Origin: Candidatus Saccharibacteria bacterium oral taxon 488
Lineage (GTDB): Bacteria; Patescibacteriota; Saccharimonadia; Saccharimonadales; Saccharimonadaceae
DNA: 32,000 bases
Direction: 5' to 3'
Assembly (NCBI GenBank): GCA_010202845.1
Contig: CP047921.1
Coordinates: 660,001 to 692,000 of the forward strand
Made by a program: the position numbers and the translations under genes. Positions 8,769-31,031 of the stretch are shown here, piece by piece; the stretch's first letter is position 1, and each line of letters begins with the position of its first letter. Below the pieces are notes generated by a model that had not been told where the DNA came from, made no database searches, and was given only the letters and a program-made list of their open reading frames with translations.

Positions 8769-8790
8769 CACTGCTTGGGCGCGGTATAAT
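8761..8790 (+). promoter_or_regulatory. Promoter of murT-gatD (leaderless geometry)
   Basis: TTGTAG - 18 nt - TATAAT (8785-8790) - 7 nt - ATG 8798. There is no SD. Confidence 0.55.
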
Positions 8791-8797
8791 ACGAAAT

Positions 8798-13461: not shown

Positions 13462-13986
13462 ATGGAAACAGTAAAACCAACTCGAAATATACTTGTTGCC
13501 GTTGATGTGCAGCATGATTTTATCGATGGTAGCCTGGCAGTTGCCGAGGGCGAGCAGGTCGTTGCCCCGCTCAATACCATCGCCGAGACCGTGCGGCACC
13601 ATGCTGGGCAGGTCGTTTTTACCCGTGACTGGCACCCCGCAAAAACACCACATTTTGTTAATTGCGGTGGCCAGTGGCCAGTCCACTGTGTCGCTGGCAC
13701 AACTGGCGCTGCCTTTCATGATAAGCTTGACGTGCAGCCTGATGACATTATTATCAACAAAGGCATAAGTCAAACTGACGGGTATTCTGGTTGGGAGGGT
13801 CAAAGTGACACAGGCGAGACGCTGGAGACCATCATCACACCACGAACACCTCGCGAGAAGGTTCAGGTATTTCTCGGCGGGCTGGCAACTGATGAAGAAG
13901 AGGCCTTAGCCGCCATGAAAGAGGCCCACGTTCTGGCGGTTTCAACCAGTGAGGCTAAAATGATGATCGAAAGGAGTGTTCAATGA
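13462..13986 (+). CDS. pncA: Nicotinamidase/isochorismatase-family protein (PncA-like) lacking the catalytic-Cys segment; possibly inactive
   Basis: The N-terminal two thirds are a canonical PncA: VAVDVQHDF (catalytic Asp), TRDWHP...H / WPVHCV (metal ligands), IINKG (catalytic Lys). After GGLATD the expected YCV... block is absent, and the sequence continues directly into the C-terminal helix (EEEALAAMKEAHVLAVSTSE). Confidence 0.75.
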   Translation: METVKPTRNILVAVDVQHDFIDGSLAVAEGEQVVAPLNTIAETVRHHAGQVVFTRDWHPAKTPHFVNCGGQWPVHCVAGTTGAAFHDKLDVQPDDIIINKGISQTDGYSGWEGQSDTGETLETIITPRTPREKVQVFLGGLATDEEEALAAMKEAHVLAVSTSEAKMMIERSVQ

Positions 13987-16555: not shown

Positions 16556-17194
16556 TTACGCGTTCACCGCCTCAATCTCCACCGACAGCACGTCTTTATT
16601 CGTCGGTAGATCAGACGTCGGCTCAAAGGTGTAAACCAGTAACTGACCAAACGGCATTTCCACATGGGCCATATCTGCTTCTGGTACGTGGTCGAGGTGC
16701 TTCATTAACGCACGGATAGAATTACCATGCGCCACCAATAGAATGTTCTCACCCGCCTGTAATTTCGGTAGTATCTCCCGCTCAAAATATGGCACGACCC
16801 GCGCATAAACATCTTTGAGCGTTTCACCGCCCGGCACCGGATAGTCCCAGCCGCGCCGAATACCGTTGAATGCTTCCTCGCCGATCTCAGCCTTGACTTC
16901 CCACTTATTTTTACCGGTCAAATCACCATAATCACGTTCGTTCAGCTCGGCCGCCTGTGTCGTCGGTAAACTGCCCTTACCGCGCCCCTCAAGCAGTGCG
17001 TCCAGCGTTTGGTGCGTCCGCTGCAGCGCCGACGTATACGCCTCATCAAACCTGATGTCTTTGAGTAGCGCACCCAGCCGCACTGTGTCGGCCCGCCCCT
17101 TTTCCGTGAGCCCCACGTCCGTCCAGCCCGTCCACTTACCGAGCAGATTCCATTCACTCTCGCCGTGTCGACTGATAACCAATGTTCCCATCAT
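16556..17194 (-). CDS. gpmA: 2,3-bisphosphoglycerate-dependent phosphoglycerate mutase (histidine phosphatase family)
   Basis: LVISRHGESEWNLLGKWTGWTDVGLTEKG (the RHGE motif), LLVAHGNSIRAL (the second catalytic His). A GGAGGAGG SD lies upstream. Confidence 0.85.
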   Translation of the reverse strand: MMGTLVISRHGESEWNLLGKWTGWTDVGLTEKGRADTVRLGALLKDIRFDEAYTSALQRTHQTLDALLEGRGKGSLPTTQAAELNERDYGDLTGKNKWEVKAEIGEEAFNGIRRGWDYPVPGGETLKDVYARVVPYFEREILPKLQAGENILLVAHGNSIRALMKHLDHVPEADMAHVEMPFGQLLVYTFEPTSDLPTNKDVLSVEIEAVNA

Positions 17195-17214
17195 TCCTCC
17201 TCCGTTTATTTTTC

Positions 17215-17742
17215 CTACGAACCAAATCCCACGAATTGCGTAACCGCCTCTTGACGTTCGTCATCGCCGTCAACGATTCGCGTCTCGACATAACCGCCTG
17301 GCTGATGATGAGCCCAATGTGGTATCGACCACGCGAATCCTTCATTGCTTGCCAGCACTGCGTCGCGACTCATGAACTGATAGGCATCAATTTCCGACTG
17401 CTGCAAGACAATTCGTTCCAATCGCTCATCATCCAGCACTGCCCTGAACACATATTGATGCGCCAGTCCTTTGTCGCTGGAGCGTGACGCCACCGCGAAA
17501 AACGAAACTTCCTCCTCAGTAACCACCAGCCCGACCTCTTCCTGGGTTTCGCGAAGTGCTGCCTGTAGCGGCGTTTCGCCAGCGTCAACCATACCACCAG
17601 GCAGACTCCAATGCGTCTTGTAATATGCCTTGACCGTGAGCAGCTCGCCCGCTGAATTTTCGATCAGCAACGCGGCGCTGGCGATCCGAGTGTCCTGCGC
17701 TTTCTGCCATTCCTCATACGGCAACCAACCACTTTTTATCAT
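17215..17742 (-). CDS. Nudix hydrolase (canonical box)
   Basis: GGMVDAGETPLQAALRETQEEVGL matches Gx5Ex7REUxEExGU. Confidence 0.8.
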   Translation of the reverse strand: MIKSGWLPYEEWQKAQDTRIASAALLIENSAGELLTVKAYYKTHWSLPGGMVDAGETPLQAALRETQEEVGLVVTEEEVSFFAVASRSSDKGLAHQYVFRAVLDDERLERIVLQQSEIDAYQFMSRDAVLASNEGFAWSIPHWAHHQPGGYVETRIVDGDDERQEAVTQFVGFGS

Positions 17743-19229
17743 TTTGCGTACTCGATCGCCCGTGTTTCGCGGATAACGTTAACCTTGATGGTGCCTGGGT
17801 ACTGCATGGTCGATTCAATCTTGGTGGCGATATCGCGCGATAACTTAAATGCGCTCAGGTCATCGATATCTTCTGGCCGAACAATCACCCGCACCTCACG
17901 CCCGGCCGAGATCGCATAGGCCTTGTCAATCCCGTCAAAGCTGGTTGCCACATTTTCTAGATCGCGCATCCGCTCGGCAAAGTTCTCAGCCGAAATATTA
18001 CGTGCTCCTGGCCGAGCAGCGCTGGCAGCGTCGCACACTCGCACGATCAGTGCCTCTGGTGTCGTCGCCTCGATATCATCGTGATGCGCTTCGATGGCGT
18101 GAACGATCCGCTCATCCATGCCGTATTTGCGCGCTAGCTCGGCACCGATGTGGTGATGCTTGCCCTCGATCTTGTGAGTCACCGCCTTGCCAACGTCATG
18201 CAGCAGTGTCGCGATTTTCGTGATGCGCACATCAGCACCAATTTCCTCAGCGATCATTCCAGCCATCTGAGCCATCTCGGTCGAATGCTTCAATACGTTC
18301 TGCCCGTAACTCGTTCGGAATTTCAGCTCACCTAGCAGTCGCTGCATTTCCTTCGGAATGCCGACAACGCCCGTCTCGCGCATGGCATCCTCACCAGCCT
18401 GCTTGACTTCTTTATCAATCTGCTTTTTTGCCTTGGCGACGACTTCTTCGATGCGCGCTGGATGGATACGACCATCTTTCATCAACATCTCGAGACTCAA
18501 GCGAGCCACCTGCCGGCGAATCGGATCGAAACTCGACAGCACAATCATACCCGGCGTGTCATCCACCAAAATATCGACACCAGTCTCGCGCTGCAACGCC
18601 TGAATGTTGCGGCCTTCTTTGCCGATGATTCGACCTTTCATCTCATCATCAGTCAGCTTGACAGCCGTGACTGTTCGCTCAGCCGTTACCTCGCTGCTCA
18701 TCCGCTCCATCGCGGTGAGCAAGATCATCTGCGCCCGCTCTTCGGCATCATCCATAGCCTCGTGTTGTAATTTCGACACCAATCCAACCAGGTCGTTCTT
18801 GATATCGCGCTCGGTCATTTGCATGAGCTTGTCGGCAGCATCCTTTTTCTTTAGGCCGGCAATCTTCTCGAGCTTCTCCTGCTGGCGCGTGCGAATAGTG
18901 CGAATCTCTTCCTTGAGATTGTCAACCTCATCTTCGTGCGTGCGCAGCTTCTCCGCCCGCTTATCTAGTTCGTCCAATTTCCGATCCAGCGTCTGCTCGC
19001 GATCCGCCAACCGATTCTCGGTCTTTTGCCACTCGCGGCGGCGCTCATTTTCGATTTTTAAGGCTTCGTCCTTAGCCTTCAGGACAATGTCGCTGGCCTT
19101 ACTCTTTGCCTCGGCAATGTCACGCTCAATTTGTGACTTGCCGTTAGCTTGCCTCGTCCGCTGATAGGCGTAAAAACCGCCCACGCCAAGTGCCGCGCCA
19201 ACCAAGCCGCCAATAACTATTCCTACCAT
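17739..19229 (-). CDS. rny: Ribonuclease Y
   Basis: N-terminal TM helix (MVGIVIGGLVGAALGVGGFYAY), a long coiled coil, a KH domain (GRIIGKEGRNI) and an HD domain (LLHDVGKA...HH). ATG 19229 has an AAGGAAA SD. Confidence 0.9.
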   Translation of the reverse strand: MVGIVIGGLVGAALGVGGFYAYQRTRQANGKSQIERDIAEAKSKASDIVLKAKDEALKIENERRREWQKTENRLADREQTLDRKLDELDKRAEKLRTHEDEVDNLKEEIRTIRTRQQEKLEKIAGLKKKDAADKLMQMTERDIKNDLVGLVSKLQHEAMDDAEERAQMILLTAMERMSSEVTAERTVTAVKLTDDEMKGRIIGKEGRNIQALQRETGVDILVDDTPGMIVLSSFDPIRRQVARLSLEMLMKDGRIHPARIEEVVAKAKKQIDKEVKQAGEDAMRETGVVGIPKEMQRLLGELKFRTSYGQNVLKHSTEMAQMAGMIAEEIGADVRITKIATLLHDVGKAVTHKIEGKHHHIGAELARKYGMDERIVHAIEAHHDDIEATTPEALIVRVCDAASAARPGARNISAENFAERMRDLENVATSFDGIDKAYAISAGREVRVIVRPEDIDDLSAFKLSRDIATKIESTMQYPGTIKVNVIRETRAIEYAK

Positions 19230-19384
19230 ATGATTTCCTTTCTTTTCCGACCAATCGCCCCGGGTATACACCCCGAGAAATGTATCAACGACTGACCATA
19301 TTCAACTGATGCAATAAAACGGCCCAAGCCACTAATCTAAAGCCGCCTTACTTTTATTGTACGATATTGCGGAGGAAAATACCA

Positions 19385-19759
19385 CTATTTGCGCGGAGCC
19401 GTGATGTGAGCTTCGCCACCATATTCGGGGAGAATAATCGTGTCGTTTTCGCCGCACTTCAGCCGCTCCAGGCAGTCATCTCGCCAGTGATCGCCACTAC
19501 TGCCAACGATCGGAACACCGAGTCCCTCCGCCAGCGTGTTTGCCACCGCACAACCAATCCTCAGTCCCGTAAAGCTGCCCGGCCCCCGCATGATACCGAT
19601 ACCACTGATGTGGTGAATGCCGCCGACCTGCTCGTCCAAAAATCGTAGCAGCCCTCGGGCTAAACCACGACCCGCTTCCCACACTACCTCTCGCCGGCTA
19701 TCGCCCTGAACAATCGTTAAACGGCACGTCATCGTCGATGTATCGAGCAGAATAATCAC
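19385..19759 (-). CDS. tsaB: tRNA t6A biosynthesis protein TsaB, unusually short form
   Basis: ILLDTST...IGIMRGPGSFTGLRIGCAVANTLAEGLGVPIVG is the TsaB/YeaZ N-terminal signature. The protein is only 124 aa. Overlaps tsaE. Confidence 0.75.
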   Translation of the reverse strand: MIILLDTSTMTCRLTIVQGDSRREVVWEAGRGLARGLLRFLDEQVGGIHHISGIGIMRGPGSFTGLRIGCAVANTLAEGLGVPIVGSSGDHWRDDCLERLKCGENDTIILPEYGGEAHITAPRK

Positions 19760-20232
19760 ACCAACTCCTCGTCCGCCGCGCTGATTGCCACGAGGAGTGC
19801 CTGGCTCGTCGGCCCGCCAGCACTCAGCGTGACACGCCGCGATTGCTCGTCAATTGCTAGAATCCTCGCTGTCAGTCGATCGGCTGGCAGCACCTGCTCG
19901 ACGGCACCAGCCCACTCAACCACTGTCACGGTCTGCGGTTGCATGGCTACCTCATGAATCTCCTCCGCCATGATACCCGCCTCGCCCAATCGATAAAAAT
20001 CGTAATGGGCCAGCGTCAAGCCGCCCGGCGACTGGTACACACGGGAAATAGTAAACGTTGGGCTCTGCACCGGTTCAGTAATGTCGAGCCCCTTGGCAAC
20101 ACCTTTCGTTAGCGTCGTCTTGCCAGCGCCGATGTCCCCGATTAACTCGATAACTTCCCCACCCTTCAGGTTGCGCCCAATCACTTGACCCAGCCGCTGC
20201 ATCGCTGCGGTACTGGTAATAATTTGGTTCAT
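19756..20232 (-). CDS. tsaE: tRNA t6A biosynthesis ATPase TsaE
   Basis: GDIGAGKTTLTKG (P-loop), SPTFTI and HYDFYRL, the diagnostic TsaE/YjeE motifs. Confidence 0.85.
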   Translation of the reverse strand: MNQIITSTAAMQRLGQVIGRNLKGGEVIELIGDIGAGKTTLTKGVAKGLDITEPVQSPTFTISRVYQSPGGLTLAHYDFYRLGEAGIMAEEIHEVAMQPQTVTVVEWAGAVEQVLPADRLTARILAIDEQSRRVTLSAGGPTSQALLVAISAADEELV

Positions 20233-20813
20233 TTGCTGTCGCTGCCGTCAGCTTCGGCCGCAGGGTGCGCCTTTCGGAATGGATTTTCGAACGTTGCTTG
20301 TGGCTGCACGACCGGCTCCTTGTGGCGGATCTCTGGCGTCTTGACAACGATATGTTCGTCGGTCACACGAACAATTTGCGAACGATGAATCAGCAGTTCA
20401 GTATCGCCAAAACTCTTGAGCAGCGGTCGCCGCACCCGGAGCTGCTGAATGACAAAATTACCGGCCTCCAACGTATAGCCGATGACCTTACCGACCTTAT
20501 GCTTTTTTTCATCAATGACCTGCTTACCAACTAGTGCGAACTGAAACTCATACACTTCCTTGATCTTCAGGACGTCACCTGGCATAATCAGCTCGTCCGC
20601 CGAATCAATGATCAGACCCAGCGGTCCAATTTCCCGCACATCGGCGATCCGTAGTAAACTCGGCGATTGATCAAGCGTCGGCCCCTCCAGCTCATACGCC
20701 ACGATCGATAAACTACGCGGGTCGATCACCGCCCGCGATGTCCGTGCCAGTTCCGAGCCAGTCTGCAGGCTCATCACCGGTGCGTTATCAAATCGTTCAG
20801 CAGAAATTAGCAT
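20229..20813 (-). CDS. PRC-barrel-like domain protein (tentative)
   Basis: Two repeats of a pattern resembling PRC-barrel/YlmC-type domains (short beta-strand-rich modules with V.D....K.GKV.g). The start is ambiguous (GTG 20822 or ATG 20813; a TATAAT at 20823-20828 on the minus strand lies just upstream). Confidence 0.45.
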   Translation of the reverse strand: MLISAERFDNAPVMSLQTGSELARTSRAVIDPRSLSIVAYELEGPTLDQSPSLLRIADVREIGPLGLIIDSADELIMPGDVLKIKEVYEFQFALVGKQVIDEKKHKVGKVIGYTLEAGNFVIQQLRVRRPLLKSFGDTELLIHRSQIVRVTDEHIVVKTPEIRHKEPVVQPQATFENPFRKAHPAAEADGSDSK

Positions 20814-20840
20814 ACTTCTCACATTATAGCGATATCCACG

Positions 20841-21128
20841 CTATTCGGCAAACAGGTTCGTCCGCCCTGCCGGCAGACTAAAATTGGCGTTGGCGGTATC
20901 GCGCGTACGGAAACTGTTGATCTGGTCAATTGTCTTCTGGTCAAATCGCGTCGTCTGTTGCTGAATGGTATCTTCTTTTGGATTTGACGAGGCGAGCAGA
21001 CTGTAGAGCAGGAAAATTGCCACCGATACGCCAACCACCACTGTCAACGTATAGAGAATAACGTGGTAGCGATGGAAAAACCGCGATACTAGCGTACCGA
21101 TTTGTGAAATATCAGGTGAGTTTTTCAT
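20841..21128 (-). CDS. Small single-pass membrane protein (hypothetical)
   Basis: ORF with one TM helix (VILYTLTVVVGVSVAIFLLYSLL). Overlaps the pilO-like stop. Confidence 0.5.
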   Translation of the reverse strand: MKNSPDISQIGTLVSRFFHRYHVILYTLTVVVGVSVAIFLLYSLLASSNPKEDTIQQQTTRFDQKTIDQINSFRTRDTANANFSLPAGRTNLFAE

Positions 21129-21754
21129 CGAACATATACCTCCACTTCCAAGGTTTGTGTATTCACTTGACCTGTCCCCTCGGTCTTGGACATACTGACA
21201 CTAGCGATCTGCATCCGCGTCAAGTTCTGCTCGATCAAATGCATAAACCGAAGCAGCGCCATATAATCTGTTTTTTCGTTGAGGCGGACCGACACTTTCA
21301 TGCTTTTTGGCCCGGCAGCGCTGTTTGAACCGGAGCTATTATTCGTACCCGAGGTTCCTGATGAACCCGAGTTTGACTTGGCTCCAGCCGAGCCTGATGT
21401 GAAGGTGAACCCAGCGATACCAACACCAGATTTATTGGCGTAGGCCGTGAGGTCATTGATAATTTGGTTCTGGTACTGATACTGCTGCGTTTCTGCCACT
21501 AGCTGCTGCGCCTTGGCAACACTATCCTTATATTTCTCCATCTCTTTTTCCAGCCGCGCTAGATTCTGCACTTTAGCATCAACCGCTTTTGCCTCAGTCT
21601 GAATTTTAGAAACTTCCTCGGCAGTACCTTGCAGCATGGTGTAGCCAAAATAGACGACCCCTCCCATGCCGACCAAGATCAGTACCAGCGACAGCGCAAA
21701 GACGATCCGCATGGTCACCGCCGGTGTCATTTTTTCTCGTTTTCTCTCACTCAT
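21125..21754 (-). CDS. pilO: PilO-like type IV pilus alignment protein (tentative)
   Basis: Position after pilM-pilN. N-terminal TM helix, then a coiled coil (AEEVSKIQTEAKAVDAKVQNLARLEKEMEKYK), an S/G/N-rich linker and a C-terminal alpha/beta region. The call rests on architecture and synteny, not a diagnostic motif. Confidence 0.5.
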   Translation of the reverse strand: MSERKREKMTPAVTMRIVFALSLVLILVGMGGVVYFGYTMLQGTAEEVSKIQTEAKAVDAKVQNLARLEKEMEKYKDSVAKAQQLVAETQQYQYQNQIINDLTAYANKSGVGIAGFTFTSGSAGAKSNSGSSGTSGTNNSSGSNSAAGPKSMKVSVRLNEKTDYMALLRFMHLIEQNLTRMQIASVSMSKTEGTGQVNTQTLEVEVYVR

Positions 21755-22311
21755 TGCTTCGCAACCTCCGGCACCATCGTCACATTAATTGTAATATTGA
21801 TCGGATAGCCGTCCTTGTTTTCTTTCTCGGCCACCGCCGAGGCGAGATTAACATCCTTAAAGAGGCTTGACTGCTGAAAACTGTCCTTGAGCCGCAGCGC
21901 ATCGCCATACGTTTTACCGCGCGCGTTGATAGTCATCGGCGTGCCGAGCTTCTTGCTATCTAGCGTCAACGTTTGCAAAATTGTCCCCGACGGCATCGCC
22001 TGAGCGATCTTGAGTGCTACCTTTGAATACCGCACATCTTTATCGAGAATCGCCTTGGCAATCTTGAGGTTTGCGCTGAACGATTCATAATCCTGCTGAA
22101 CTTTTTGATATTGCAGCGCTCGACGATTACCTGTTTCAATCGCCTGTCGAGCAGTTGTCCGAGTATGCGCCATAATAAAGTAGATACCCGCTGTCGCCAC
22201 GATGAGTAAGAAGCCAAGAATCAACGACACCACGCAGTAACGCCACAGTATCACATTTGACCGGCCAGCGATAATCTCGCGTTTAACTTTCGGCGGTAAT
22301 AGATTAATCAT
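21751..22311 (-). CDS. pilN: Type IV pilus assembly protein PilN
   Basis: N-terminal MINLLPPK (the INLLP PilN signature), followed by one TM helix and a periplasm-type domain. Overlaps pilM and pilO. Confidence 0.75.
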   Translation of the reverse strand: MINLLPPKVKREIIAGRSNVILWRYCVVSLILGFLLIVATAGIYFIMAHTRTTARQAIETGNRRALQYQKVQQDYESFSANLKIAKAILDKDVRYSKVALKIAQAMPSGTILQTLTLDSKKLGTPMTINARGKTYGDALRLKDSFQQSSLFKDVNLASAVAEKENKDGYPINITINVTMVPEVAKQ

Positions 22312-23413
22312 GCCAAATCTCCTCCGCTCGCACTAGCGACAAACCAGCTGCCGTCATGAACCGCGGTCGTAGCTGTTTGGCCGGTGGTGCTAAATTATTA
22401 AAGTTCAGCGACTGCCACGGACTGGCCACTCGTGCTGGCAAGGTCAGCTCGCCCGTAAAGTACTCACCAAGCCCCGGCACGCTACTGCCGCTACCAACGA
22501 TCAATACCTGCTCAAGGCGTGACTCATCCGGGAAGCGATCGGTGTAGTAGCGAATAACTTTCTGGATTTCACCGATGATCCGCTGCAGGCTCGGCTTTAG
22601 TGCCTCGGTAATTTTTTCTTGACGAGGGCCAGTGTTGAGGCCATTAAGCACCTTGAATTGGTGCGCCGTCTCAAGTGGTACGTTCAATTTTTTAGCGATG
22701 TCAAGCGTCAATGTATTGCCACCAATGTTTAGACCACCGGTCACACGAATTGCCGCATCAAGAATAGCGATATCGGTCGTCGCCGGGCCGATGTCAACGA
22801 TGACTGTCGGCAGCGACCCCTCTTTGGTGCGCTCAAGCAGTCGCGCCACCGCATTGATACTCGGCTCAATCATTGCCACCTCAATACCGCACGATTCAAC
22901 AATTGCCAGCTGCTCGTCAACGATCTTTTGCGGCACCGCGCACATCAAGACTGATAAGTTCTCTTTGCCGCGCTTGATAATCTGATGATCGACGTAGAGC
23001 GAATCAAGCGGCATCGGCACATACTGCTCGACCTCGAGATTCACCGCCTCTTCAATCTTATTCTCCTGCTTGATCGGCAGCGCAAAGGTGCGTGCATATG
23101 TCTTGGTCGTCGGTAGTCCCAGCACCACGCGGTTACTGCCGAGCCGCCCGACAATATTTTTTTCAAACATTTGATTGATCTTGCCGCAGAGATACTCTGC
23201 CCGGTCATCGCTCTCGTCCTTCGCCGGATCCAGCTCAATTGCGCCGTATCCGTGCACCGTCATCCGTGCCATGTCGACTGACATTACCCGAACGCCAGCC
23301 TTGTTAATATCAAGCCCGATGATCGGCTTTGACTTGTAGAAAATATTTGCCACTATCGTTTGCCCACATCTCTTCTTTTTGTTAAGTATAGCATAAGCAT
23401 TTTGAAAAACCAA
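22304..23413 (-). CDS. pilM: Type IV pilus assembly ATPase-fold protein PilM (actin-like)
   Basis: IIGLDINKAGVRVMSV at the N-terminus, VIVDIGPATTDIAI, and LIVGSGSSVPGLGEYF, the phosphate-binding motifs of the PilM/FtsA-like actin fold. The start is uncertain (TTG 23413 or GTG 23353). Confidence 0.8.
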   Translation of the reverse strand: MVFQNAYAILNKKKRCGQTIVANIFYKSKPIIGLDINKAGVRVMSVDMARMTVHGYGAIELDPAKDESDDRAEYLCGKINQMFEKNIVGRLGSNRVVLGLPTTKTYARTFALPIKQENKIEEAVNLEVEQYVPMPLDSLYVDHQIIKRGKENLSVLMCAVPQKIVDEQLAIVESCGIEVAMIEPSINAVARLLERTKEGSLPTVIVDIGPATTDIAILDAAIRVTGGLNIGGNTLTLDIAKKLNVPLETAHQFKVLNGLNTGPRQEKITEALKPSLQRIIGEIQKVIRYYTDRFPDESRLEQVLIVGSGSSVPGLGEYFTGELTLPARVASPWQSLNFNNLAPPAKQLRPRFMTAAGLSLVRAEEIWHD

Positions 23414-24640
23414 CTATCCTTTAATTTGATTTGCTAATCCAGTAATCGGCATCATCACCGCCGCCGCGATCAAGCCGACCATACCACCCATAAAGACGAT
23501 CATCACCGGCTCAATCGTCGAACTCAAGCCGCTAATCGCCGCATCGACTTCTTCCTCATAAAAATCCGCCACCTTGACCAGCACCTTATCCGTTTGCCCC
23601 GTTTCCTCACCGACCGCCAGCATCTGGCCAACGATTGGTGGATAGAGATCTTCGCGCTCATTGATAATCCGCGACAAAACCTCGCCATTCTTAATGCGCT
23701 TGGCAGCATCAAGCAATGAATCTTGATATACCGTATTACCAACTGCCCGGGCTGTTACTTCCAGCGCCTCGAGTACCGACACGCCCGCACCGATCAGCGC
23801 TGAGAAGGTACGGGTAAACCGCGCCACCGCCACCTTGCGAATAATCTTGCTGATGATCGGCGCTTTCAGGACGAAATGATGGAACTTGACTTTACCTTTT
23901 GGGGACTTGATGTAGCGAAGCAGCGCATACACACCGCCAAATAGCAACGGGAAAATAATATACCAAAAACTCACCATAAACTGGCTGATACTCATCAGTA
24001 TCTGCGTCAGCGCCGGCAGCTCTGCGTCCTCACCCGCCAGATCCTTAATCGTCTTGCCAATCATCGGCAGCACAAAAATCATCAAGCCAAAGAACGCCCC
24101 GATAGTGATGACGATCAGCACCATCGGATAGGTCATGGCGCTCTTGATCTTCTTTTTCATTGATGAGTTCTTTTCCTGCTGCAGAGCCAGCCGCTTCAAA
24201 ATATCGTCCAAAATACCACCCGTTTCACCAGCCCGCACCATGTTCACATACACATCGCTGAAGGCCTCGGGGTACTTACTCAGTGCATCAGCGAACGAGG
24301 CACCGCCTTCAATCTCCTTGGACACCGCGTTCAAAATCTCGCGAAAATGTGGACTCTCGGCGTGCTGCGCCATTGAGTTGAGTGACCTGAGAATTGGCAC
24401 ACCGGCAGACACCATGGTGCTAAGCTGCCTGGTAAAGCCAACCAGCTCCTCGGTCGGCACTGACTTCTTGCCACCCCCAAAGCGAAAACCTTTCTTCTCG
24501 TCACCAGCCTCCTTGAGGTCGACCAACCTCATACCCTGAGTTTGAATGAGCTGAATGGCACTGGCGCGGCTACTGGCTTCTAGCTCGCCGTTGATCGGCT
24601 GATTATTATTTTTAGTTGCGATATATTTAAATTTTGTCAT
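23414..24640 (-). CDS. pilC: Type IV pilus platform protein PilC (GspF family)
   Basis: Two T2SS-F repeats (FTRQLSTMVSAGVPILRSL... / FTRTFSALIGAGVSVLEAL...) and three TM segments. Confidence 0.9.
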   Translation of the reverse strand: MTKFKYIATKNNNQPINGELEASSRASAIQLIQTQGMRLVDLKEAGDEKKGFRFGGGKKSVPTEELVGFTRQLSTMVSAGVPILRSLNSMAQHAESPHFREILNAVSKEIEGGASFADALSKYPEAFSDVYVNMVRAGETGGILDDILKRLALQQEKNSSMKKKIKSAMTYPMVLIVITIGAFFGLMIFVLPMIGKTIKDLAGEDAELPALTQILMSISQFMVSFWYIIFPLLFGGVYALLRYIKSPKGKVKFHHFVLKAPIISKIIRKVAVARFTRTFSALIGAGVSVLEALEVTARAVGNTVYQDSLLDAAKRIKNGEVLSRIINEREDLYPPIVGQMLAVGEETGQTDKVLVKVADFYEEEVDAAISGLSSTIEPVMIVFMGGMVGLIAAAVMMPITGLANQIKG

Positions 24641-26422
24641 TTATTGCTCCCTTGTTGCTCTCAAAACTTCCTCTAGCGTTGTCACGCCACGCAGCGACTT
24701 GACAAAACCGTCCGTCTGCATTGTCACCATTCCTTCAGTAATCGCCTGCTGCTGAATCTCATTACTAGTGGCATTGGCGGTGATCATTTTTTGGATTGGA
24801 ATCGAAATACCGAGAACCTCGTAGATACCGACGCGCCCCTTGAAGCCATTATGGCCGCACTCGTCACAGCCCTCGGGATTTGGTCGCCATAAATATTGAA
24901 TCGTCACGTCAGTCGAGCCGAGCGGTGTATTGCCGCCAATCTTGTCAGCTGCCGCCTGCTGCTCCAGCGCATGCAGTCGCTGCATCGAGCCCTGCTTGAG
25001 ATTAAACATCTGAACGATGTAGGCCAGCTCTCCGGCGTCCGGCACATATTGCTGACGACAATGCATACACAATCGCCGCACCAAGCGCTGGCCGATCACC
25101 GCCTTGACCGTCGAAGCGATCAGGAACGGCTCAATTCCCATATCCAATAGACGCGGCAGACAGGTCGCTGCGTTGTTGGTGTGGAGGGTTGAAAACACCA
25201 AGTGCCCAGTCAGCGCTGCCTGCACACCGAGGTTGGCGGTCTCGCCGTCGCGAATCTCACCAACCATGATGATGTTCGGGTCTTGACGGAGCAGTGCGCG
25301 CAGTCCTGAGGCGAAGGTCATGCCGGCTTTTGAGTTAGTCTGGGTTTGGTTGACCCCGGGGATTTTGTATTCAACCGGGTCTTCAATGGTTGAGATATTC
25401 ACATCTGGCGTATTAAGTTCTGATAGCACACTAAACAAGCTAGTCGACTTTCCCGAACCAGTTGGCCCGGTCACCAAGATCATACCATTTGGTTGCGCCA
25501 TAGCGTCTTTAAGTGTACTCAGCGATAACCCCCAATAGCCGAGGCTATCGAGGGCAACCGCCTGGTTGGACTCGTCCAAAATACGCATGACGATCTTCTC
25601 GCCATCAGCGATCGGCAGCGTCGACACACGCAGCGCGTATTGCTTACCAGAAACCTTGATCTTGAAGCGACCATCTTGCGGCACGCGGCGTTCATCAATT
25701 TTTAGGTTTGACAAGATCTTGATGCGGCTAACCAGCGCACCTTGGACATTGCGCGGCAATTTATTCACTTCCTTGAGCACGCCGTCGATTCGGTAACGAA
25801 CTTGGACGAAATCCTCGCGCGGCTCAATGTGAATGTCGGAAGCACCCGACTTGATAGCATACTCGAGCAGCAAATTAACCGTCTGGGCGATCGGCGAATT
25901 CTCAGAAATCTCCTCCTCAGAGACGTTTTGTGAATCTGACTCAGCGCCGCTCTGGATTGACACCACCTCATCCAGCTCATCGGTAATATTACCGCGATAA
26001 TTTTCCAGGCAATCAAGGATATTATTTTTTGTCGCCAGGAACACCTTAATGTTGTAGCCAATCTCTTTCTGGATGAAATTCAGCGCCTGCACATCATCCG
26101 GATCTTCCATCGCCAGACTCAAGACGCCATTATCATCGACGGCAAACAATACGACATTGTACTGACGGGCGATGTGCTCGGGGATACGCTTAAGAACATC
26201 GTCAGGAATATCCTTTGGCTCAATGGTTACAAACGGCACATTGATGTATGCGCCAATCTTTTGCCCGAGCTGTACCTCGCTCAGGATTTTGTGCTCCAAG
26301 ATAATCGTCTGTAACGAATGGTGCGTACGTTCCGCCTCCATCTTTAACTCGGCCAGCTGTGACTCAGAAATTACCTCACCCTGGCGCAAAATCTTCTCAA
26401 TACTACTGTCAGAAATGCGCAT
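24641..26422 (-). CDS. pilB: Type IV pilus assembly ATPase PilB (GspE family)
   Basis: GspE N-terminal domain; Walker [13 protein letters not shown]; Asp/His boxes ([19 protein letters not shown]); tetracysteine motif (C..C...C..C near CMHC...CDEC). Confidence 0.92.
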
Positions 26423-26506: not shown

Positions 26507-27145
26507 ATGAACGATTCAGTAATTTCAGCAATCCTTTTTGATGTTGGTGGTGTACTTGTCAGTGACTACGACATCCAAAGTGACCTGAGAAACGCCCTGT
26601 ATAACCCCGAGCATTTCGACCAACAATGGCCAAAAGCTTTGCACGACTACGAAAGCGGTTTCATAGACGAGAGCGTATTTCTGCGAAAGCTAGGTTGTGA
26701 TCATCCATCCCCAGAGCAATACGATCGGCTAACTCGTGGCTTCCGTGATCATCAAGTATACTTCCAAAATGTCATCACATTTGCACGTTCATTGACGACG
26801 CATGGACTACAGATCGGTATCCTCAGCAATGCTATGCCGAGCCACTCTGCTATCTTGCAGCAAGCAGGTATCTATGACGGTTTTAGACCATGTCTTTTAT
26901 CGTGGCAGATTGGTTACCACAAACCTGAACGGGGTGCATTTACATCTGCCCTCTCAGCATTAAACCTATCTGATAATCCAGAGCACGTACTGTTTATTGA
27001 CAATCATCAAAATAACCTCGACGCAGCAGCGGCTTGTGGCATGCATACCCTCCTCGCAGTGCGCCAAGCAACACAAGCGCAAACTGAGCAAACGATCATT
27101 ATGGGAATAACCGATAAACTACTGTCCCTTGGCGTCGTGCTATGA
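26507..27145 (+). CDS. HAD-superfamily hydrolase (subfamily IA-like)
   Basis: Motif I ILFDVGGVLV (the DxG variant seen in YihX-like phosphatases), motif II ILSN, and a late IDN/D acidic motif. Confidence 0.7.
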   Translation: MNDSVISAILFDVGGVLVSDYDIQSDLRNALYNPEHFDQQWPKALHDYESGFIDESVFLRKLGCDHPSPEQYDRLTRGFRDHQVYFQNVITFARSLTTHGLQIGILSNAMPSHSAILQQAGIYDGFRPCLLSWQIGYHKPERGAFTSALSALNLSDNPEHVLFIDNHQNNLDAAAACGMHTLLAVRQATQAQTEQTIIMGITDKLLSLGVVL

Positions 27146-27487
27146 TCAGCGATTATCACCCCGCCCGTGCAGCTGCTGGCGGGCTTGGCGGCTGGCGAGC
27201 TTTTGGTTGTTCATCCGGGCAACTTCCTCGAGGCTAGAACCGAGCAGGTGCGCCACTGCATTAACATACCACAACACGTCGCCTAATTCTTTGAGAATTT
27301 CTGTACGGTCATCGTCTGTCAGTATTCCCTGCTTGTCGCGAACCAGCTTTTTGAACTTTTCAGCCACTTCGCCCGATTCGCCGACCAGCCCAAGCACTTG
27401 CGCCATTAGTCGCGCATCAATCTCCCCATACTCATGCGTACCAATCAGTGTCGCGATGGCTTTCTTGGCGTACTCATCAATTGTCAT
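27146..27487 (-). CDS. MazG-like all-alpha nucleoside triphosphate pyrophosphohydrolase
   Basis: LGLVGESGEVAEKFKK...ELGDVLWYV is the paired EExxE/ExxD metal-binding helices of the MazG/dimeric dUTPase-like family. An AAGGAG SD precedes ATG 27487. Confidence 0.8.
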   Translation of the reverse strand: MTIDEYAKKAIATLIGTHEYGEIDARLMAQVLGLVGESGEVAEKFKKLVRDKQGILTDDDRTEILKELGDVLWYVNAVAHLLGSSLEEVARMNNQKLASRQARQQLHGRGDNR

Positions 27488-28181
27488 AGTTTCTCCTTTC
27501 AATTACCTCATTTAATTCTGCCACAAATTCCTCAAAAAAGAACGGGTCGTGAAAGAACGTCCGTGCTACGATTTGCTCAACCGCTGGCGCCAAGTCATAA
27601 TCCGCCAATCGATGCGGACGGGCCCACACCAATTCTCTGCCCGCCACGACTTCATCAGTCTCACCATAAAACACGTGCGCCAACGTTGATGATAATATTT
27701 CCTTCCCCACAAGGACACGAATATAGCAATCACCCGCGTGTGTCAGCGGCAGCTTATCCACCGCTAATTTCTCACGTGCCTCCCGCTGAGCGGCGGCCAA
27801 GACCGACTCATCATCAATATGTAGCTTGCCGTACGGCAGTGTCCAGGTATCGATATGCGGCTGTTTGGTGCGCCGCTGGAGCAGCACATCACCATTGGCA
27901 TTTTGGACAACAATCATAGTAATAATTTTTGGTTGGGTACGAACTTTGAGCGATTTAATACTAACTCTATCGACGTACGACAACCCCTCCCGCCCGAGGC
28001 AGTATCCATCATCCGTCTTGATGACGAATCCTCGCTTCTTCAATATATTTAAGTGGTAGGTATAGAGATTGGTATCGACTTTTGGCGGCCGCATATCCCG
28101 AAACCGTGCATATTTCATATGCATCAACACACCAAGAATATGCTTCTGAATATGATGTTCGGGGATAAATTGGTCAATCAT
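27477..28181 (-). CDS. N-terminal winged-HTH plus C-terminal degenerate Nudix domain protein (putative ligand-sensing regulator)
   Basis: The N-terminus (HILGVLMHMKYARFRDMRP...NLYTYHLNILKKRGFVIKTDDGYCL) looks like a MarR/ArsR-type wHTH. The C-terminus is a Nudix fold with a degenerate box, YGKLHIDDESVLAAAQREAREKLAV (EE replaced by EK, Gly replaced by Ala). Confidence 0.65.
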   Translation of the reverse strand: MIDQFIPEHHIQKHILGVLMHMKYARFRDMRPPKVDTNLYTYHLNILKKRGFVIKTDDGYCLGREGLSYVDRVSIKSLKVRTQPKIITMIVVQNANGDVLLQRRTKQPHIDTWTLPYGKLHIDDESVLAAAQREAREKLAVDKLPLTHAGDCYIRVLVGKEILSSTLAHVFYGETDEVVAGRELVWARPHRLADYDLAPAVEQIVARTFFHDPFFFEEFVAELNEVIERRNYDN

Positions 28182-28222
28182 AGTTGAGTCAAATTATACT
28201 TGCTATTCATACAAGTAATTCT

Positions 28223-28241
28223 ACACTACAATCACTAGTGT
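28223..28241. promoter_or_regulatory. 19-bp palindrome ACACTA-N7-TAGTGT overlapping a TACAAT -10 box (candidate operator)
   Basis: Read directly from the sequence: ACACTAcaatcacTAGTGT. TACAAT is at 28227-28232. It lies in the 88-bp divergent intergenic region between the wHTH-Nudix gene and the CYTH-kinase gene. Confidence 0.45.
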
Positions 28242-28269
28242 CATCAACACAACTAAAGGAGCGACGCTT

Positions 28270-29421
28270 ATGTCAATCGAATCACTCATCCACACACCCG
28301 AATTTGAAGGGAGATTGCCCGTAGAGACTGAGCGTAAATTCATGGCTATCTTTCCGGAAAAACTCACCGATCTGCGCAAAGAAGCCGAGCCGATTGAACA
28401 GTTATATCTATCACACCCGGACGAGCCATTTAGTCTACGCCTCCGCTCAACCTTTAGGCGTGATACCGGCGAGCTACATTACGAAGCAACCCTCAAAGAC
28501 AATGGCTTCCGGAGTGGCGATGGTCTGCGTCGGCTAGAGGTGACGACTGAGATTAGCCCCGAGTTATATGAATACTACCGTAACGACGAGACACCAATTA
28601 TCCGCAAACTACGCGCCGAACCGCTACCCGGTGTCGTTATTGATTTTTTCGAAAACGACGGCCTAGTACAAGCTGAATTAGAAGATAATGGATCATGGCA
28701 ACAATTTACTGACCAGTTTGGTAATATATTCATGGAAGTGACCGGTGAAATAATGGCTACCAGTGAGTGGCAGGCGCACTACGACTTCCGACGACAACAC
28801 GAGGGGCGGGAGGCGCTGTCAATTCAGCCGGAGCTTGACATTGATACTATTGTTTCTGATATTCTCACCCCTACCGCAAACTCTCCGCGCATCATCCATA
28901 TCGCTGGCCGTAGTGGCTCTGGTAAATCAACCATCGTCAAACAACTCCGCAAGCGGCTGGATGAGCTCAACATTAATTCAATTACTATGTCAACTGATGA
29001 CTATCATCGTGGGGCAACCTATCTTTATTATTATAATGATCGTCAGGAATGGCAGCACTGGGATGACCCGTTTGTATATGACACCGAAACGATGGCCATC
29101 GACCTACAAAATCTCGTTAATGATAAGGAGATATACCATCGCCACATGAATTGGCAAACTGCGGAGCCCTATATAGCGGGTACACTTAGCCCAGCAGAAG
29201 TAATCATCGTTGAGGGAATCTACGCCAAATCACCTGATATTATCACTGACAATAGCCTCGTCTACGAAATACCAACCCCAATCGCCACCTGTATTGGTCG
29301 GCGTATCCTGCGCGACCTTAACGAACGCCCGCAATTTTGCAACCCCTCGGAAAATCTACTCTATTTATTGAGTGAGGCCGAGCCAGCATATCGTGCTCAA
29401 CAGCAACCAACCAATGCTTGA
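28270..29421 (+). CDS. Fusion protein: CYTH (triphosphate tunnel) domain plus uridine kinase/PRK-family P-loop kinase
   Basis: CYTH signature series: VETERKF (ExExK), IEQLYL, FSLRLR, ATLK, RRLEVTTEI, IRKLRAE, VIDFF...AELE. Kinase half: HIAGRSGSGKST (P-loop), STDDYH, WDDPFVYD, IIVEGIYA, RRILRDLNERP. An AAAGGAG SD is present. Confidence 0.85.
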   Translation: MSIESLIHTPEFEGRLPVETERKFMAIFPEKLTDLRKEAEPIEQLYLSHPDEPFSLRLRSTFRRDTGELHYEATLKDNGFRSGDGLRRLEVTTEISPELYEYYRNDETPIIRKLRAEPLPGVVIDFFENDGLVQAELEDNGSWQQFTDQFGNIFMEVTGEIMATSEWQAHYDFRRQHEGREALSIQPELDIDTIVSDILTPTANSPRIIHIAGRSGSGKSTIVKQLRKRLDELNINSITMSTDDYHRGATYLYYYNDRQEWQHWDDPFVYDTETMAIDLQNLVNDKEIYHRHMNWQTAEPYIAGTLSPAEVIIVEGIYAKSPDIITDNSLVYEIPTPIATCIGRRILRDLNERPQFCNPSENLLYLLSEAEPAYRAQQQPTNA

Positions 29422-30107
29422 GGGGATGAGGGCTCACTTTGGCTTTCATTAATCCGATGGTCGACTGCTCGCACAAACCCAATCGCCTTCCCCTCGCCAA
29501 CCCACCGCTGCTCGTAGGTTGTCATGATCCGGGCATCGCTCTCCTCATCAAGTCGCTCCGATTCGTGCAGATCAAACGTTAGCTCCCGAAGCTGCCAGCC
29601 AGCCACCACCAGCTGCTCCAAGCTCCAACAGAAAAAGTCGTGATCATCGTGCTTGAGTAGTAGCTCGCCGCCCTCATCAAGCAACTTTGCGTACTGCGTT
29701 AAAAAATGTGGGTGCGTCAAACGCCGACCACTGGAGCGCTGGCGTGGAAACGGATCGGGGAAAGTAACCCACAACTGACTGAGTGATCCAGCCTCACATA
29801 ACTCACCCAGCTGATCCGCTCGTGCCCGCACAAACCAGATGTTCGTGAGGCCGCGTCGCTCGGCCTCACGTGCCCCTTTTTGCAATCGATCGGCCTTGAC
29901 ATCAACCGCCAGAAGCCGCTGCTCGGGACGGCGCGCCGCCAGCTCGACACTAAACAGTCCCGTTCCCGCACCGACCTCCAGTACATCAATCGGCCGCGGC
30001 GTCCACTCATCATACTCAAAACAAAGCGGCGAATTGTTAAATAGCGCAAATTTATACTTCTTGCGCCGCCGAGTGATAACGAATTGATTTGGATCGACAA
30101 AACTCAT
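29397..30107 (-). CDS. trmB: tRNA (guanine46-N7)-methyltransferase
   Basis: VLEVGAGTGLFSVELA (SAM motif I), LWVTFPDPFPRQR and RRLTHPHFL, the TrmB signature blocks. ATG 30107 is preferred (TATAAT 7 nt upstream). The 3' end overlaps the convergent CYTH-kinase gene by 25 nt. Confidence 0.85.
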   Translation of the reverse strand: MSFVDPNQFVITRRRKKYKFALFNNSPLCFEYDEWTPRPIDVLEVGAGTGLFSVELAARRPEQRLLAVDVKADRLQKGAREAERRGLTNIWFVRARADQLGELCEAGSLSQLWVTFPDPFPRQRSSGRRLTHPHFLTQYAKLLDEGGELLLKHDDHDFFCWSLEQLVVAGWQLRELTFDLHESERLDEESDARIMTTYEQRWVGEGKAIGFVRAVDHRINESQSEPSSPQALVGCC

Positions 30108-30122
30108 ACTTTTCATTATACT
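30094..30122 (+). promoter_or_regulatory. Promoter of the MscS-like gene (leaderless geometry)
   Basis: TCGACA - 17 nt - TATACT (30117-30122) - 6 nt - ATG 30129. Confidence 0.55.
30115..30120 (-). promoter_or_regulatory. -10 box (TATAAT), 7 nt upstream of the trmB ATG (leaderless geometry)
   Basis: The minus strand reads tagTATAATgaaaagtATG. It overlaps the opposite-strand -10 of the MscS-like gene by 4 bp. Confidence 0.5.
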
Positions 30123-30128
30123 AAACTC

Positions 30129-31031
30129 ATGACGGATACGCTTATCAAACAACTGTTAAATTCGTCGCGCTTTGATGAATGGATGACTGAGCATGGACTA
30201 GGCTGGCTGGTAAGCGAGCGGATGGTTGAAACAGTCAGTATCGTCATTGGCGCGGTTATCGTTTATTATTTTGGCCGCATGTTTATCACCTGGGCGATCC
30301 GTTACGCGATCCATTCCACTGCCAAGCACCGCTCGTGGCACCGCAAAGATATCGAAAAGCGCGAAAATACGCTGACGCAGCTGATCCGTAGTTTTTGGCG
30401 CATCACTATCATTGCCTACATCGCCGCCATGGTCGCCAGTAAGTTATTCTACTTCGACTTGTCACCACTGTTTGCCAGCGCCGGCATCATTGGCGTAGCG
30501 CTCGGATTTGGTGCACAATCACTTGTCAAAGATTTTCTGGCCGGCATCTTTATCATCGCTGAAAATCAATATCGCGTCGGCGATATCGTTGATGTCATGG
30601 GTGCGAGCGGCACTGTCGAGCGCGTCGGCACCAGGTCAACCGTGCTCCGCGATGCTGATGGTAATGTGCACTACTTACCAAATGGCACCATCCAGCATGT
30701 CATCAACAAAACGATGGGGTATAGCATGTCGCGCTTTACCTTGCAGCTTGATCCAAGTACCGACATCAGCCGCGCCGCTGATATCATCAACGAGACCGGC
30801 CAGCAATTGAGCAAGGAAAAATCTTGGGACAAGAAAATTATTGAACCGCCAAAATTTGTCTCCGTCGGCGATATCACCGGCCGCTCGGTCGAATTGATCG
30901 TTGCCGGTAAGGTCCAGCCATCAGATCAATGGGCGGTTACCTCAGAGATGCGCCGCCGACTCCTCAAAGAATTTGAAAAACAAGAGATCGAGCTAGCTGT
31001 CATCCCAACGGCGATAACGCATAAAAAGTAA
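30129..31031 (+). CDS. Small-conductance mechanosensitive channel (MscS family)
   Basis: Pore-helix and beta-domain signature GVALGFGAQSLVKDFLAGIFIIAENQYRVGDIVDV...GTVERVGTRSTVLRDADGNVHYLPNG. Confidence 0.85.
   Translation: MTDTLIKQLLNSSRFDEWMTEHGLGWLVSERMVETVSIVIGAVIVYYFGRMFITWAIRYAIHSTAKHRSWHRKDIEKRENTLTQLIRSFWRITIIAYIAAMVASKLFYFDLSPLFASAGIIGVALGFGAQSLVKDFLAGIFIIAENQYRVGDIVDVMGASGTVERVGTRSTVLRDADGNVHYLPNGTIQHVINKTMGYSMSRFTLQLDPSTDISRAADIINETGQQLSKEKSWDKKIIEPPKFVSVGDITGRSVELIVAGKVQPSDQWAVTSEMRRRLLKEFEKQEIELAVIPTAITHKK

Follow-up and report, generated by a model that had tools for sequence, protein, structure and literature searches.

We analyzed a 32,000-nucleotide (nt) stretch of the genome of Candidatus Saccharibacteria bacterium oral taxon 488 (contig CP047921.1, positions 660,001 to 692,000; hereafter the window), in which an operon encoding a winged-helix-Nudix protein and a MazG-type protein faces a divergently transcribed gene that fuses a CYTH (triphosphate tunnel) domain to a P-loop kinase. 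The original prediction had reported three such genes, and the open reading frame (ORF) listing contains all of them: a MazG ORF at 27146-27502 and a 234-aa protein at 27477-28181, both on the minus strand, and a 383-aa protein at 28270-29421 on the plus strand. Oral taxon 488 loci L001 and L002 encode proteins 98–99% identical to those of the window in the same gene order. Our comparisons suggest that the winged-helix-Nudix protein is a convergently evolved transcription factor with a Nudix sensor, for which we define a candidate operator and propose a CYTH-centered regulon across the Candidate Phyla Radiation (CPR), the regulation itself being what we infer. The genes and their protein domains are:

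27146-27487, minus strand: MazG gene, 113 aa, second gene in the regulator's operon
27477-28181, minus strand: winged-helix-Nudix protein gene, 234 aa, predicted ligand-responsive transcription factor
27966-28157, minus strand: N-terminal winged helix-turn-helix, residues 9-72
27516-27929, minus strand: C-terminal Nudix-fold domain, residues 85-222 (Pfam NUDIX, NUDIX_4, PDB profile search, Foldseek)
27759-27830, minus strand: Nudix box, residues 118-141, GKLHIDDESVLAAAQREAREKLAV
28270-29421, plus strand: CYTH-kinase fusion gene, 383 aa, divergent from the regulator
28312-28749, plus strand: CYTH (triphosphate tunnel) domain, residues ~15-160, hydrolase-type signature
28867-29403, plus strand: PRK/uridine-kinase-family P-loop kinase domain, residues ~200-378

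Winged-helix-Nudix regulator

The AlphaFold model of the 234-aa protein (pLDDT 84, pTM 0.78) begins with the elements H10-21, H27-30, H37-49, E53-56, E59-62, and H64-71 (H, helix; E, strand), followed by a flexible linker and a Nudix fold. Winged-helix Pfam families matched the N-terminal domains of all 28 members tested at E ≤ 1, mostly under the Pfam cut-offs (DUF7347 in 28/28 and HTH_45 in 18/28, with HTH_20, ArsR, HxlR, and MarR also found), and a profile of the N-terminal domain likewise matches winged-helix families. A winged-helix fold is supported by the model and these matches, with no specific winged-helix family indicated. The recognition helix reads TNLYTYHL, and its N38, Y42, and H43 are invariant or nearly so across the family, including distant CPR members.

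The C-terminal domain belongs to the Nudix fold, with a Pfam NUDIX score of 43 bits on residues 88-172 (cut-off 21.1), and a Foldseek search of the model against the PDB returned Nudix domains only, at E ∼1e-8 (YfcD, GDP-mannose mannosyl hydrolase, MutT-like proteins, and the NrtR Nudix domain). Fold and domain matches agree in the model with the predicted arrangement of an N-terminal winged helix and a C-terminal Nudix domain. By PDB profile search and Foldseek the Nudix domain is closest to MutT/NudG/YfcD/GDPMH-type proteins, and its highest NCBIfam scores are to NTP-type Nudix models; these relatives (NudG, MutT-like) point weakly to an NTP-like effector. Foldseek with the full model found no PDB structure spanning both domains in this order, and alignments of the full regulator to CDP-Chase and UDP-X diphosphatase, Nudix enzymes of two domains, were set aside for their rmsd of >10 Å.

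The complete Nudix box of active hydrolases, GX5EX7REUXEEXGU, is absent; the family instead carries the form REUxEK-x-GU. Across 136 representatives the family box reads G-x5-E-x7-R-E-L-x-E-K-T-G-L, with lysine at the position of the last catalytic glutamate in 97/136 and glutamate in only 3/136. The window protein departs further, reading G118-x6-E125-x7-REAREKLAV, with both E-to-K and G-to-A changes and one extra residue between G118 and the box glutamate; among 21 close homologs, G118, D124, R133, E134, and K138 are conserved, as is E137 with one exception. The description of this box as degenerate in the original prediction therefore holds for this sequence (REAREKLAV) and not for the family, whose box is canonical but for one fixed Glu-to-Lys change. 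The replaced glutamate is presumably a direct metal ligand, by analogy with the mechanisms of MutT and ADP-ribose pyrophosphatase, and because it has become lysine across the family, the Nudix domain most likely binds a nucleotide without hydrolyzing it. Such a fixed substitution is the pattern expected of a binding domain without turnover, a pattern that does not by itself prove inactivity.

The protein could instead be an enzyme and repressor at once, or mainly an enzyme, with the Nudix domain hydrolyzing a nucleotide (e.g. a non-canonical (d)NTP) in the sanitation pathway of MazG and the winged helix serving only to autoregulate or to tether the enzyme to nucleic acid, as in NadR, BirA, or PutA. 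Conservation of the G, E, R, E, U, E, G, and U of the box, nearest relatives that are active hydrolases (NudG, MutT-like, YfcD, GDPMH), and translational coupling to the hydrolase MazG would all fit this explanation. However, the Glu-to-Lys change is fixed family-wide rather than sporadic, as is usually seen in sensor or pseudo-enzyme domains like that of NrtR, and we regard a catalytic role as unlikely.

NrtR carries its Nudix domain at the N-terminus and its winged helix at the C-terminus (PMC2330246), and the window protein, with a winged helix at residues 9-72 and a Nudix domain at 85-222, has the opposite order, as had been proposed. Members of the NrtR family, including Bacteroides AraR, resemble it in joining a winged helix to a Nudix sensor with an altered box and in being encoded beside the metabolic genes that they control; Foldseek also aligns the window Nudix domain to that of NrtR (3gz8, 3gz5) at E ∼1e-7. 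The differences are nevertheless extensive: apart from the reversed domain order, the window winged helix is ArsR/MarR/DUF7347-like, the NCBIfam model for NtrR (NF050029) scores 18.8 bits against a cut-off of 400 and covers the Nudix core only, the operator motif is another, and the neighbors are NAD synthesis genes there and CYTH, kinase, HD, or MazG genes here, with an arabinose regulon for AraR. The window family was, moreover, restricted to Patescibacteria in our searches. Apart from NrtR and AraR, we found no described Nudix-domain regulator in the literature searched, and the window regulator is best read, from its sequence and architecture, as a convergent fusion that arose independently of NrtR.

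An exhaustive profile search of a representative cluster library recovered 1335 clusters at E<1e-3, of which 161 have E<1e-30 and are mostly ∼220 aa proteins matching both domains. Named members come from Saccharibacteria, the Patescibacteria group, Paceibacterota, Nomurabacteria, and Parcubacteria; all organism names but one are Patescibacteria lineages, the exception being a 9.5-kb contig from a metagenome-assembled genome labelled Dongiaceae. The family is thus large and, in this search, confined to Patescibacteria (CPR). We found no published description of it in the searchable literature, where the top-ranked papers on Saccharibacteria or Patescibacteria do not contain the word Nudix. Southlakia epibionticum ML1, a genetically tractable Saccharibacterium, has a MazG-NUDIX-TrmB series (SEML1_0748 to SEML1_0750; PMC10633639 supplements) with no CYTH gene adjacent; its NUDIX protein has only 192 aa, with the Nudix domain at 18-145, and may lack the winged helix.

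Palindrome and conserved neighborhood

The control signals between the regulator and the CYTH-kinase gene are:

28182-28194, no strand: candidate operator, 13-bp palindrome AGTTGAGTCAAAT, abutting the regulator ATG; family consensus ATTTGAsTCAAAT
28182-28206, no strand: conserved 25-bp control block, on the regulator strand aTAGaAAGTaTAaTTTGAsTCAAAt, then ATG
28218-28247, minus strand: candidate sigma-70 promoter of the regulator operon, TTGATG-18-TAGAAT, by consensus match only
28171-28200, plus strand: candidate CYTH-kinase promoter, TGGTCA-18-TATACT, with the palindrome in its spacer, by consensus match only
28256-28261, plus strand: CYTH-kinase Shine-Dalgarno sequence AAGGAG, 8 nt before the ATG at 28270

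Scanning one genome per species yielded 133 relatives of the regulator, and we retained the 80 best loci together with at most 10 kb of flanking sequence per side. The 25 nt directly 5' of the regulator ATG are conserved and the remainder of the intergenic region is not. Across 30 non-redundant Saccharibacteria lineages, nine positions (-12 to -8 and -6 to -3) never vary and the center (-7) is G or C only, which is what binding of a palindrome by a dimer would predict. Allowing no more than one mismatch, the palindrome lies directly 5' of the regulator start in 73/80 Saccharibacteria loci and is almost absent from the rest of the 1.5 Mb that they comprise; the second operator-like sites found elsewhere in these loci are few, lie inside coding sequence, and look like chance matches. 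Within the 32-kb window the site at 28182-28194 is the sole good match, no other being better than 3 mismatches, at a frequency expected by chance.

Ten loci from distant CPR lineages contain 11 exact TTGAsTCAA sites in 85 kb. An exact core stands 23-56 nt upstream of the regulator ATG in nine of the ten, usually in the arrangement CTAGTCAAA-N3-4-ATTTGAsTCAAA, which is homologous to the 25-bp block. In the tenth (L088) the region upstream of the regulator has no site, and the core is found between the regulator stop codon and the downstream kinase-CYTH gene. The palindrome is thus kept in sequence while its distance to the ATG shifts from 0 in Saccharibacteria to 23-56 nt in other CPR. These features are the signature of an autoregulatory site of a dimeric DNA-binding protein, presumably shared with the CYTH gene. 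An RNA hairpin is excluded because the 13-bp dyad has no spacer or loop, and an Rfam search of the intergenic region returned no RNA element.

L088, a Paceibacterota contig, also has a second composite operator-like site at 771-789, ATTGACTCAATTTGACTAG (the reverse complement of CTAGTCAAATTGAGTCAAT), which accounts for the last of the 11 exact cores. It falls in a segment (1-1766) with no called gene and short ORFs only, and a gene for a UPRTase-cytidylate kinase fusion (1767-3116) lies downstream.

A TATAAT-like hexamer is present in the 25-bp block. No Shine-Dalgarno sequence precedes the regulator ATG, and the regulator mRNA may have a very short leader. At the place equivalent to the candidate sigma-70 promoter, other lineages show a recurring -35 GACA and -10 TAnnnT. 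In L089-L097 a -10-like hexamer (TATACT, TATAAT, or TATTAT) stands 6-9 nt before the regulator ATG (at 4001), again with no Shine-Dalgarno sequence, which suggests that regulator mRNAs are leaderless in CPR outside the Saccharibacteria.

The gene divergent from the regulator varies among Saccharibacteria in its domains: it encodes an HD_3 (YfbR-like) + CYTH fusion in 31 loci, a CYTH-kinase in 29, a lone CYTH domain in 9 (plus a tenth whose reading frame is disrupted), a lone HD domain in 3, a nucleoside 2-deoxyribosyltransferase in 2, and unknown proteins in a few. A CYTH domain consequently lies opposite the regulator in 70/78 Saccharibacteria loci. The HD fusion and the stand-alone CYTH protein share 49% identity over the CYTH part. 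The deoxyribosyltransferase-like genes occupy the CYTH slot at 9301-9849 in L017 and at 881-1312 in L079. MazG directly follows the regulator in at least 55/80 Saccharibacteria loci; in L075 an NTPase_I-T (ITP/XTPase-type) gene (1531-2064) takes its slot.

Exchange of the partner can be seen between close relatives. Among loci whose regulators are 93% identical to that of the window, L007 carries a CYTH-kinase and L008 and L010 an HD-CYTH protein, with the same flanking genes; the segments, of unrelated length, lie between TrmB and the regulator (∼8580-9915, corresponding to window 28270-29421). Similarity resumes exactly at the 25-bp control block, suggesting cassette exchange by recombination there. 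In the reverse direction, both CYTH-kinase homologs checked (P0070 and P0063; n = 2) have a divergent Nudix regulator, and a metagenome scan with the CYTH-kinase alignment gave one true relative among the matches listed.

The other neighbors in the ten distant CPR loci are mutually unrelated, and a CYTH gene adjoins the regulator in six of them, which indicates that the association is independent of inherited synteny. In five of these six the adjoining gene encodes an AAA_28 kinase of ∼370-430 aa, for which a C-terminal CYTH domain was found in four cases (L090 by Pfam, L088 and L093 by a custom HMM, and L096 by motif reading) and assumed in L092, whose gene is similar in length and position; in the sixth locus, L094, the CYTH gene stands alone.

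Overall, the regulator/CYTH pairing recurs in ∼90 independent loci, an arrangement far from chance, which answers the call for a gene-neighborhood check of co-occurrence. The constant partner is the CYTH domain; the kinase is exchangeable for HD, AAA_28, or nothing, and MazG is frequent and optional. The notion of a self-contained regulated unit thus survives as far as the conserved neighborhood and palindrome go, but the unit that is conserved is the regulator with a CYTH enzyme and not the set of three genes.

These observations bear on whether any regulatory link exists at all, since housekeeping genes could be held together by slow rearrangement and the conserved block could consist of promoter or start signals of a leaderless or short-leader gene. 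Consistent with this are the synteny of TrmB and MscS in many Saccharibacteria, the TATAAT-like hexamer of the conserved block, and the missing Shine-Dalgarno sequence of the regulator. However, promoter hexamers do not explain a perfect 11-13-bp dyad with a G/C-only center; the palindrome stays constant as the ATG distance varies and stands before the CYTH gene in L088; the pairing also recurs in other CPR classes with different neighbors, and the partner has been swapped repeatedly yet remains a CYTH or nucleotide enzyme. We therefore consider the lack of any link very improbable.

CYTH-kinase fusion, MazG, and flanking genes

Both domains of the fusion protein score above their Pfam cut-offs (CYTH, 24.4 bits against 23.2; PRK/uridine kinase, 40.4 bits against 22), and its model has a pLDDT of 90.6. 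The residues E19xE21xK23, R57xR59 (in the context S-x-R-x-R), K76, E90, K113xR115, and E136xE138 and the P-loop GRSGSGKST are invariant in 22 homologs of 50–90% identity, bearing out the prediction of complete CYTH motifs from ExExK to ExE followed by a C-terminal kinase of the uridine kinase (UK)/PRK family. Signature rules for CYTH/triphosphate tunnel metalloenzyme (TTM) subtypes are given by Vogt et al. (PMC8233210), in which class IV cyclases have an HFxxxxExExK extension, alanine for the second Glu of ExE, and a replaced central Arg. A class IV adenylyl cyclase (CyaB) was rejected on these grounds, as there is no HF extension before ExExK and both E136xE138 and R57xR59 are intact, and a thiamine triphosphatase because a small residue, rather than W/Y, precedes RxR. 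By its signature, the CYTH domain is classed as a hydrolase-type TTM.

Foldseek placed human UCK2 and Thermus uridine kinase at the top for the kinase domain (1e-10), with Arabidopsis TTM1 aligning through its kinase only. When aligned with UCK2, the domain retains the P-loop Lys, Asp243 (catalytic), Asp265 (ribose-binding), and the lid RRxxRDxxER, but not the pyrimidine-specifying Tyr112 and His117 (Met/Ile and Ala instead). The NCBIfam uridine kinase models fall below their cut-offs (PRK05480, 66.5 against 180; TIGR00235, 54 against 220). The claim of a complete uridine kinase accordingly stands for the PF00485 family and the catalytic residues, while the pyrimidine residues and equivalog scores do not establish uridine specificity; the domain is probably an active PF00485-family enzyme acting on a nucleoside-like substrate.

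The nearest described counterparts are TTM1 and TTM2 of plants and amoebozoans, which likewise join a PF00485 UK-like kinase and a CYTH domain in one polypeptide; AtTTM1 (7z66, 7z67) was recovered by both sequence and fold searches of the kinase. As had been noted, the plant kinase is N-terminal, giving kinase-CYTH there against CYTH-kinase here (PMC9582702). The plant TTM domains, moreover, have neither ExExK nor ExE and are catalytically incompetent (PMC9582702, PMC8233210), whereas the window fusion keeps all catalytic residues, invariant, and the C-terminal membrane anchor of the plant proteins has no equivalent in the window protein, which shows no coiled coil, anchor, or extension past the kinase. 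The PF00485-kinase-TTM tandem has been described as plant-unique, or as restricted to Viridiplantae and Amoebozoa (PMC9582702, PMC8233210); PMC8233210 also cites a 2002 paper for a general mention of CYTH fusions to HD and to nucleotide kinases. The bacterial CYTH-UK and AAA_28-CYTH fusions fall outside the published plant-unique statement. Bacterial TTMs (CthTTM, NeuTTM, YgiF) share the full hydrolase signature of ExExK, RxR, K, KxR, and ExE, but are single-domain or CHAD-fused, in contrast to the nucleoside-type kinase or HD_3 partner and the dedicated adjacent regulator found here.

Three further features adjoin the fusion gene or accompany the regulator operon:

27493-27498, minus strand: MazG Shine-Dalgarno sequence AAGGAG, within the 3'-terminal part of the regulator gene and separated by 5 nt from the ATG at 27487
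26507-27145, plus strand: HAD-IA phosphatase (Pfam Hydrolase + HAD_2), convergent on MazG with zero spacer
29397-30152, minus strand: TrmB, flanking the CYTH-kinase gene

We place the MazG start at the ATG at 27487; the resulting 113-aa protein aligns over its full length with those of related loci. With the regulator TGA ending at 27477, the two genes overlap by 11 nt (27477-27487), so that both the overlap and the separate AAGGAG of the original prediction can be read in the sequence. The protein belongs to PF03819 (Pfam MazG, 41.1 bits against a cut-off of 22, E 2e-10), matches the PHROG MazG-like (phage MazG) family at 2e-32, and carries the metal motifs ExxE and ExxD as ESGE and ELGD. Its closest PDB relatives are 2q73, 2q5z, YpjD (2gta), and the dCTPase DCTPP1, with weak E-values of 0.002-0.1. 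It is predicted to be an NTP pyrophosphohydrolase of the MazG type, small and with a single domain. Small house-cleaning MazG proteins (YpjD, DCTPP1/RS21-C6), among which integron iMazG is also counted, are alike in their ∼110 aa, single MazG domain, and conserved acidic metal motifs; identity to them is low, and the window gene differs in being translationally coupled to a Nudix-domain regulator.

The HAD-IA phosphatase, whose stop codon abuts that of MazG (27145-27146), has weak NCBIfam matches to nucleotidases and occupies the equivalent position in ∼20/80 Saccharibacteria loci; it is possibly an accessory nucleotidase, and its membership in the module is uncertain. The convergent CYTH-kinase and TrmB genes overlap at their 3' ends by 25 nt (29397-29421), without a spacer, and no terminator-like hairpin was found between either convergent pair (CYTH-kinase/TrmB, HAD/MazG). 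Among the flanking genes are also MscS and, for the type IV pilus, pilB and pilC. A minus-strand cluster at 16556-26422 adjoins the module (RNase Y, 17739-19271; pilM, 22304-23413; pilC, 23414-24640; pilB, 24641-26422), and its synteny with the module is restricted to the closest relatives. Elsewhere in the window, a nicotinate phosphoribosyltransferase (NAPRTase) gene (13983-15221, plus strand) overlaps by 4 nt a gene (15218-16555) for a 445-aa fusion of Nudix with an APH-type phosphotransferase, the second unusual Nudix fusion of the window; the two form an apparent NAD-salvage operon, near which (13983-16555) no operator-like site was found.

Some of these features could be taken to indicate a module of NAD metabolism, in which the regulator would be a functional analog of NrtR sensing ADP-ribose or a pyridine nucleotide and the kinases would act on nicotinamide riboside. 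AAA_28, the kinase family that occurs fused to CYTH beside the regulator in Paceibacterota-type loci, is one that we take also to hold the ribosylnicotinamide kinase domain of NadR; AAA_28 kinases and one NMNAT-like gene, a CTP_transf_like (NMN-adenylyltransferase-type) gene in L090, neighbor the relatives from other CPR. The UK-like domain, moreover, lacks the pyrimidine-specifying residues of UCK2, and NrtR, a known Nudix-domain regulator, senses ADP-ribose (PMC2330246). Yet the window's NAPRTase operon has no operator-like site, the partners found in the same slots are nucleotide or deoxynucleoside enzymes (YfbR-like HD, nucleoside deoxyribosyltransferase, MazG, ITP/XTPase), the best matches of the kinase are uridine-cytidine kinases with no nicotinamide riboside kinase among them, and NTP-type Nudix models score highest, against 18.8 bits of 400 for the NtrR model. 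An NAD module is, on balance, quite improbable.

MazG, Nudix, and CYTH domains occur in nucleotide-centered conflict systems, and here too they might act as nucleotide-depleting or nucleotide-modifying effectors against phages. The phage MazG family match (2e-32) and a weak match of the Nudix domain to the PADLOC candidate PDC-S07 are compatible with such a role, but no specific PADLOC defense-system model was matched, only the generic PDC-S07 and P-loop noise. The fixed syntenic place among core genes (TrmB, MscS, type IV pilus) in at least 80 species-level genomes, the lack of flanking mobile-element genes, and an unremarkable composition make an anti-phage function extremely improbable.

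Candidate regulatory circuit

The reading that we favor, with moderate confidence, is that of an autoregulated nucleotide-sensing repressor of triphosphate-processing and nucleoside-salvage enzymes, analogous to NrtR and independently assembled. Its ArsR/MarR-like N-terminal winged helix would bind ATTTGAsTCAAAT as a dimer, a predicted target being ATTTGAGTCAAAT, and from this palindrome it would control both its own operon (regulator and MazG) and the facing CYTH-fusion gene. The MutT-like Nudix domain would bind an NTP-like nucleotide without hydrolysis, and its occupancy would be passed on to the winged helix, shifting DNA binding. The circuit may in this way match expression of salvage and pool-cleaning enzymes to nucleotide supply, a role proposed because the partner enzymes all act on nucleosides, nucleotides, or triphosphates (TTM triphosphatase, UCK-like or NadR-type kinase, YfbR-like HD, nucleoside deoxyribosyltransferase, MazG, and ITP/XTPase). 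Such matching would matter to an epibiont of this kind, as to our knowledge, based on published genomes, Saccharibacteria have no de novo nucleotide synthesis.

Several points weigh against this proposal. DNA binding, ligand binding, and regulation are all things that we infer from sequence, as are the sign of the control (repression or activation), the nature of the ligand, and the compounds on which CYTH, kinase, and MazG act. Two of the three Nudix-box glutamates and the arginine are kept, making residual catalysis possible. In Saccharibacteria the palindrome abuts the start codon within a -10-like block, and its conservation could partly reflect promoter or translation-initiation signals. 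Adjacency in this class could likewise be partly inherited synteny, as TrmB and MscS also stay near, and 4/10 of the loci outside the Saccharibacteria have no CYTH neighbor. Finally, the MazG-NUDIX pair beside TrmB in Southlakia was non-essential in Tn-seq, as was TrmB (PMC10633639); this result says little about the regulator because the 192-aa protein probably has a different architecture.

A more far-reaching interpretation, which we think rather improbable, is a signaling axis specific to Patescibacteria, in which a small molecule bearing a triphosphate would be produced or removed by CYTH enzymes coupled to nucleoside kinases or HD phosphohydrolases and would be read by the Lys-substituted Nudix regulator. 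Inorganic triphosphate or an unusual nucleoside polyphosphate would be candidates for this molecule. If true, it would amount to a second-messenger-like circuit for the handling of host-derived nucleosides by an epibiont, and the recurrent independent fusions of CYTH with a nucleoside-type kinase (plants, CYTH-UK, AAA_28-CYTH) would reflect a shared coupled reaction.

Patescibacteria have tiny genomes, and we know of very few recognizable transcription factors in them and of almost none with a known operator, regulon, or ligand. The repressor proposed here would add a family of hundreds of sequence clusters, together with the candidate operator ATTTGAsTCAAAT and a candidate regulon, for the CPR, and all three are directly testable in genetically tractable Saccharibacteria. 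Nudix-sensor regulators apparently arose twice, as NrtR and in the reversed architecture. CYTH-kinase fusions, for their part, also exist outside plants; those of bacteria are catalytically intact, come in two arrangements, and could serve as simple models for the function of plant TTM1/2. As nucleotide acquisition is central to the epibiont lifestyle, the regulator is a plausible handle on host dependence.

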